Source: Escherichia coli (GTDB lineage Bacteria; Pseudomonadota; Gammaproteobacteria; Enterobacterales; Enterobacteriaceae). Taken from it: a DNA stretch of 64,000 nucleotides. The stretch is from assembly GCF_029227855.1 (NCBI RefSeq), contig NZ_CP074356.1; one strand, written 5' to 3'. The notes under the pieces were generated by a model that saw only the letters and a program-made list of their open reading frames with translations, was not told the DNA's origin and made no database searches. The stretch's first letter is position 1; every line of letters begins with the position of its first letter. Position numbers and translations under genes: made by a program. This document shows, piece by piece, positions 36,775-37,165 of this stretch.

Positions 36775-37165
36775 GCTTTTGTTCTCCTTGTAGGATGTTA
36801 ATAATATGTGGCATAAGCGTTAAATGTAGGGGTATTGGCAGTTTTGTTTAGTATTTGGGCGACAGATCACGCAAAAGTAGAATTGTGCAAATAAACGGCA
36901 GGGTAATTTTTGAAGGTCAGCAACAAAAGTTGATTAATTCTTTGAGGAACATGCAGTTATGCATGCTGTTGAAAAAGAGGAAGATACTGACTAACTCTAA
37001 AGTGGTATTTTACATGCACTTACAATTGATTAAAGACAACATTCACAGTGTGGTTATTTGTTACACATAGGGGCGAGCAATGTCATGACAGTGTAGGTGC
37101 GGTTACTGTCGTGAAAACAATAAAAACCGCCATTGCAACAATGGCGCAATTCGGATGAAGCCCCT
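36775..37165. promoter_or_regulatory. acs-nrfA divergent intergenic control region
   Basis: AT-rich 391-bp divergent region containing TTGATTAAAGACAA, which resembles an FNR/CRP-type half-site upstream of nrfA. The acs and nrf promoters are known to share this region. Confidence 0.5.

Follow-up and report, generated by a model that had tools for sequence, protein, structure and literature searches.

The acs–nrfA divergent control region of Escherichia coli, unaltered within a displaced and probably chimeric 10.6-kb block

A 64,000-nucleotide stretch of the E. coli sequence NZ_CP074356.1 (RefSeq assembly GCF_029227855.1), referred to here as the window, carries the acs–nrfA divergent intergenic control region at positions 36775–37165. 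This 391-bp segment is the known, already characterised acs–nrfA promoter region, and its native sequence is unchanged. It appears transplanted because the 10.6-kb block to which it belongs stands spliced into the yhj locus, where it takes the place of a near-equal length of native DNA. The block is probably a chimeric or technical construct, and most likely corresponds to no physical structure of a chromosome.

Extent and junctions of the displaced block

Apart from 27892–38529, the whole window aligns colinearly with E. coli NCTC8623 (NZ_LR134234.1, ~2,926,337–2,990,368, reverse strand). The flanks on either side of this interval (53.4 kb; 53,362 bp) align to NCTC8623 with eight mismatches and no gaps. 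The interval itself is a displaced block of 10,638 bp, read on the plus strand, which begins with ghxP at its ATG and continues through yjcE, yjcF, actP, yjcH, acs, the intergenic region and a truncated nrfA (nrfA'). Aligned to the native locus of GB089, the best reference, the block forms a single megablast piece with one mismatch and 13 gap openings over a reference length of 10,647 bp, and it is inverted with respect to its native chromosomal orientation. The native DNA that it replaces, from dctA' to rcdB', measures 10,670 bp, the same in three lineages, and its removal eliminates the 3' part of dctA, yhjJ, kdgK, pdeH (yhjH), yhjG, yhjE, yhjD and the 3' part of rcdB. The inserted and deleted lengths differ by 0.2–0.3%.

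The left junction was resolved by a three-way comparison and by translation. Codons 1–50 plus 1 nt of dctA are retained at 27741–27891 (plus strand), and the join falls between 27891 and 27892, base 27891 matching dctA alone and base 27892 matching ghxP alone. The first base of the block is precisely the A of the ATG of ghxP, and ghxP is therefore left without its promoter and ribosome-binding site; the dctA' frame enters ghxP out of frame and meets a stop after 16 codons. At the other end, homology to nrfA stops at 38529, that is, at nt 1364 of 1437 (454 codons + 2 nt), in agreement with the first-pass annotation, which had nrf cut at codon 454 of nrfA. The junction position of 38528 given there was off by one base, the actual right join lying between 38529 and 38530. 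From 38530 onward, the first 265 nt of rcdB (yhjC) follow in reverse complement. Comparison with the native locus identifies this segment (38530–38794, minus strand) as an rcdB stub of codons 1–88 plus 1 nt, whose frame continues into antisense nrfA and reaches a stop at 38468. Both joins are blunt: when compared with both parental sequences, neither contains an IS element, a repeat, a target duplication or perfect microhomology (0 bp).

The native site of the block and the yhj locus lie on opposite replichores. In NCTC8623, oriC is located between mnmG and mioC at ~3,228,600; the distances to the origin are 266 kb for the dctA breakpoint and, on the opposite side, 396 kb for the ghxP ATG, 130 kb off symmetry. 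The orientation of the block keeps its direction relative to replication and the sign of the GC skew, an outcome that has a chance probability of 0.5.

The same arrangement was sought in other genomes. The right junction occurs in none of 5,426 complete RefSeq E. coli genomes, though 5,425 of them hold both halves. None of 100,044 species-representative genomes contains either junction 40-mer, and the right junction 40-mer is also absent from 241 million metagenome records. At the protein level, the NrfA', DctA' and RcdB' fusions and the frameshifted Acs fragment have no exact match among 153 billion indexed gene positions. When homologues of the tail of the NrfA' fusion were sought, no protein spanning this junction emerged; the hits were ORF calls on native antisense rcdB and a single chimeric contig unrelated to the window.

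The window also contains native small-RNA and repeat features, at 1685–2104, 9920–11292, 34709–34779, 46235–46348 and 63123–63437. These comprise a tRNA-Pro with RtT and a REP-derived naRNA4, a triple ldr/rdlD toxin–antitoxin repeat, a REP/naRNA4 element between yjcH and acs, GadY, and two AgrB copies adjoining dinQ. They are unrelated to the junctions.

The control region and the truncated nrfA

The minus-strand start codon of acs occupies 36772–36774 and the ATG of nrfA occupies 37166–37168, so that 36775–37165 is exactly the acs–nrfA intergenic region. At least 20 complete E. coli genomes match positions 36000–38529 with 100% identity at their native acs–nrfA locus. The earlier statement that the divergent control region had been carried over intact is thus correct at the sequence level. 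An Rfam scan detected no RNA family in the intergenic region or at the junctions. An A-run in the nrfA 5' UTR, at 37113, has four residues in the window and in GB089 and five in NCTC8623 and CFSAN029787; this length polymorphism appears to be natural, since many genomes share the allele of the window.

The promoter pnrf is of FNR class II and is co-activated by NarL/NarP. Its single FNR site is centred on −41.5 and its NarL/NarP site on −74.5, and the region also includes IHF and Fis sites and a weak divergent promoter, acsP1, that is repressed by FNR (PMC5434802). A scan of the region recovered an FNR site of the TTGAT-N4-ATCAA-like type, TTGATTAAAGACAA, at 37026–37039 (plus strand), whose centre at 37032.5 corresponds to the −41.5 expected for pnrf. 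The NarL/NarP 7-2-7 site, TAACTCTAAAGTGGTA, lies at 36992–37007 (plus strand), with its centre at 36999.5 corresponding to −74.5; both sites were assigned from the scan together with the published map (PMC5434802). Their centres are 33 bp apart, equal to the published spacing. The positions of the two sites place the pnrf +1 at ~37074 and the nrfA ATG at ~+93, and the weak divergent acsP1 overlaps the area of the FNR site. IHF I–III, Fis I–III and NsrR sites would likewise be expected here, as implied by the 100% identity of 36000–38529 to native loci.

On the acs side, where the CRP-dependent promoter acsP2 is of class III, pattern scanning gave weaker matches. A CRP-like site at 36856–36871 (minus strand, centre 36863.5) is a candidate for CRP I of acsP2 at −69.5. 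The match is weak, one of five equal three-mismatch hits in the region, and it was chosen among them for its 53-bp spacing to a second site. The latter, a weak CRP-like site at 36909–36924 (minus strand, centre 36916.5) that the scan returned as an FNR/CRP-type half-site match at 36910–36923, is a candidate for CRP II at −122.5. Beatty et al. 2003 are said to have placed CRP I and CRP II of acsP2 at −69.5 and −122.5, 53 bp apart. The two weak matches centred at 36863.5 and 36916.5 may be these two sites, an assignment made from their spacing of 53 bp. If this assignment holds, the positions are consistent with an acsP2 +1 near 36794, ~20 nt upstream of the acs ATG.

The truncated nrfA is open across the right junction. 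A 554-aa ORF at 37166–38830 (plus strand) joins NrfA residues 1–454 to 100 unrelated residues encoded by antisense rcdB, as the first-pass annotation had anticipated in proposing a truncated NrfA fused to antisense yhjC. The five haem motifs of NrfA (CWSCK and four CxxCH) are all present in this fusion ORF, as is the signal peptide, and chain residues 1–433 of 452 in the NrfA structure 1GU6 of E. coli align with it. The promoter stands here without a complete nrfABCDEFG operon: nrfA lacks its last 24 codons, and nrfB–G are absent from the window. Beyond the rcdB stub, yhjB is intact at 39314–39916, on the same (plus) strand as nrfA', and no intrinsic-terminator-like site was found on the plus strand between 38530 and the start of yhjB at 39314.

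If the arrangement were real, yhjB would be the first gene met by read-through from pnrf. The earlier proposal that pnrf would drive both the fusion and this read-through is logically sound in its conditional form, the promoter being driven by trans-acting factors and the plus strand having no terminator before yhjB. The accompanying claim that transcription would arrive from the wrong side is right for the rcdB' stub, which would be read in antisense, and wrong for yhjB, which would be read in sense. FNR, with NarL/NarP, would presumably fire pnrf at its new site. A secreted, periplasm-targeted NrfA' fusion would then form under anaerobiosis with nitrite, and would depend on NrfEFG and NrfBCD provided in trans from a native operon. 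The transcript would run antisense through rcdB' and continue in sense into yhjB, so that FNR and NarL/NarP would come to control both yhjB and an RNA antisense to rcdB. In such a cell pdeH, dctA and kdgK would be lost; the loss of pdeH predicts a c-di-GMP-dependent motility defect and that of dctA a defect in C4-dicarboxylate uptake. The structure would also be an unusually clean equal-length replacement between replichores, a modest curiosity. The finding carries little biological weight; the control region itself is among the best-mapped divergent promoters of E. coli and is unchanged. Caution is needed, as the apparent promoter rewiring rests on two unsupported junctions and a technically different block.

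Errors within the block and its origin

Relative to GB089, the block contains 13 indel events and one substitution. The indels are ten single-base deletions, one deletion of AT in ATAT and two insertions of T; the sole substitution, C to A at 31137, fuses two A-runs. All of the indels lie at 28386–35701, with an overall density of about 1.2 per kb of block. The contrast with the flanks (13 indels vs 0; Fisher p = 7e-11) persists when scaled by homopolymer content (p = 5.5e-11). Single-base deletions are concentrated in runs of at least three (8 of 10, vs 16.5% expected at random; p = 2e-5), one deletion adjoins a CCTGG Dcm site, and the last 2.8 kb of the block is error-free (p = 0.018 under uniformity). 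The errors are of the slippage or sequencer type, and represent neither natural divergence nor uniform random noise. Natural decay of a redundant copy was rejected as their source, because 13 indels to one substitution, mostly in runs of 2–5, misfit the known mutation spectra of E. coli; the ratio resembles long-read consensus error.

Five of the seven block genes are frameshifted: ghxP twice, yjcE three times, yjcF four times, actP twice and acs once, with yjcH and nrfA' untouched by indels. A 1-bp deletion at 35701 (GGG to GG) divides acs (34817–36774, minus strand) into ORFs of 363 and 288 aa in place of 652, and 1-bp deletions at 33172 and 33542 leave actP (32659–34306, minus strand) as ORFs of 257, 152 and 141 aa. 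The acs-yjcH-actP operon had been described as complete; this is true of yjcH (34306–34620), which keeps an intact reading frame, and untrue of acs and actP as written.

Of the 13 indels, 12 were seen in none of the other error-rich assemblies used for comparison, and platform-systematic errors were rejected as their source on this ground. The A5-to-A4 deletion at 28386, which truncates GhxP to 183 aa, recurs at the native ghxP locus of divergent E. coli lineages, where public assemblies record it in 32 blocks. Public genomes with the 183-aa GhxP fragment share just that one indel with the window, and the deletion represents a sequencing error that recurs or else a natural pseudogene allele of ghxP.

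The change in error profile coincides with the joins, all indels falling inside 27892–38529, as would be the case for an assembly or in-silico chimera. The block lacks what would mark a natural rearrangement, namely recurrence in the collections scanned, homology at the breakpoints and an error profile like that of its surroundings. Its boundaries, its uniqueness, its blunt joins and its contrast in errors are observed directly; from them we infer a technical origin, because the junctions are unique, the joins are blunt and without homology, and the indels are confined to the block. A chimeric join during assembly, gap filling, patching or in-silico construction would have put the block in the yhj locus, and the block would derive from a lower-quality, long-read-type consensus, with flanks that were fully polished. 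The 0.2–0.3% length match and the break on a start codon are predicted by no natural mechanism tested, and a size-constrained technical step could account for the match in size. An exact equal-length in-silico swap was rejected, as 10,638 bp (10,647 in the reference) and 10,670 bp are unequal. The first-pass annotation had reasoned from the arrangement existing in a cell, a premise that finds no independent support, the junctions being absent from the collections and the error profile of the block being unlike that of its flanks. It had also named an assembly artefact as the finding that would overturn its reading; evidence of that kind is now at hand, and suggests an artefact from sequence comparison rather than by read-level proof.

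Several features count against an artefact. Two independent false joins 10.6 kb apart, without a repeat, would be unusual. The block keeps its replication direction and GC-skew sign, as a natural inter-replichore event would. Moreover, a real second copy in a long-read-first, short-read-polished assembly would also keep homopolymer indels confined to the block, because repeats resist polishing. A real duplicative replacement, with a second ghxP–nrfA' copy introduced by illegitimate recombination or template switching and dctA'–rcdB' deleted, accordingly treats the indels as unpolished long-read errors kept in a two-copy repeat. Indels confined to the block beside perfect flanks agree with this account, block-confined indels being a known signature of repeats in hybrid-polished assemblies, and so do the orientation that keeps the direction of replication, the intact promoter elements and the open plus strand up to yhjB. 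It nonetheless appears unlikely, since neither junction was present in any collection scanned, neither join shows the short homology that illegitimate recombination in E. coli usually uses, the near-equality of inserted and deleted lengths is left unexplained, and the last 2.8 kb of the block is free of errors. A particular form of physical event, a double template switch within one replication cycle, would have the nascent strand leave the yhj locus at dctA, copy 10.6 kb of the opposite replichore (ghxP to nrfA') along the direction of replication and return at rcdB once the fork at home had moved on by a near-equal distance. The orientation, the duplication, the matching lengths gained and lost and the unpolished block would all follow from it, but we consider it hardly credible. 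Synchrony of sister forks was rejected as the reason for the equal lengths, the breakpoints being asymmetric at 266 kb vs 396 kb from oriC.

That the block was acquired horizontally from a different E. coli strain, or inserted by genome engineering, is highly improbable. With 0 true SNPs, the block belongs to the GB089 allele type, at a distance of 54 SNPs from the allele of NCTC8623 and 75 from that of CFSAN029787, the two flank-identical strains examined, and the yhj flank of GB089 is just 99.7% identical to the window; a start placed exactly on an ATG would also suit a designed insert. As a test of lineage, the allele comparison loses its force and was set aside as uninformative, because NCTC8623 and CFSAN029787 themselves differ by 49 SNPs in the same block and the locus recombines freely. 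Neither scars nor att/FRT/lox sites nor a selection marker were found, and both joins (at the nrfA end and on the left) are out of frame, with no design logic visible. A reciprocal exchange by two nested inversions across oriC (rcdB/nrfA and dctA/ghxP), swapping ~10.65-kb segments and inverting each, has a very small chance of being correct. Its geometry is exact, the order L–segB(rc)–M giving both junctions and the orientation of the block, and the loci do fall on different replichores, at distances from oriC of 266 kb and 396 kb. Such an exchange would need two events and four homology-free breakpoints, 130 kb off symmetry about oriC, and would make the equality of segment lengths a coincidence. 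It also leaves the block-specific indels unexplained, because a single-copy block would polish normally, and neither inversion junction was seen in the complete E. coli genomes scanned. A chimeric or technical construct remains the probable explanation of the block.

Comparison with known systems

The native acs–nrfA region, with pnrf, acsP1 and acsP2, was reportedly described by Browning, Busby, Cole, Wolfe and co-workers in 2002–2010. It is also treated by Godfrey et al. 2017 (PMC5434802). The copy in the window resembles it in its 100% sequence identity, in the published spacing of the FNR and NarL/NarP sites and, if the weak CRP-like matches are correctly assigned, in two CRP sites 53 bp apart upstream of acs. 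It differs from it in residing in a block at the yhj locus, on the opposite replichore, and in its gene content, with nrfA lacking its last 24 codons, nrfB–G unattached and acs and actP frameshifted.

As a rearrangement, the block is similar to inter-replichore inversions and template switches (FoSTeS/MMBIR-type) in that it connects opposite replichores and keeps the direction of replication. Unlike these, it has no microhomology, has breakpoints at 266 vs 396 kb from oriC, and recurs in no genome scanned. In its error pattern, the block resembles the residual long-read indels of hybrid assemblies, which are deletion-biased, involve 1–2 bases in short homopolymers and stand beside error-free sequence, a likeness that applies to the pattern.

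The closest parallel for the joins is the chimeric contig CCCB01000042.1 (GCA_000945835.1), in which unrelated segments are likewise joined bluntly and without a repeat. Over positions 1–15868, it carries gcvTHP-ygfF-bglA, other pieces, a HyfI/HycG-like–antisense rcdB fusion, yhjB-treF (3,955 bp) and zraS, and it looks heavily chimeric. Its join inside rcdB is 59 bp from that of the window, and links a HyfI/HycG-like fragment to the same antisense-rcdB tail. The contig is built from many pieces of a few kb, unlike the window, where a single block is set in 53 kb of perfectly colinear sequence. Blunt mosaic contigs of this kind in public E. coli assemblies provide a precedent for a technical join.
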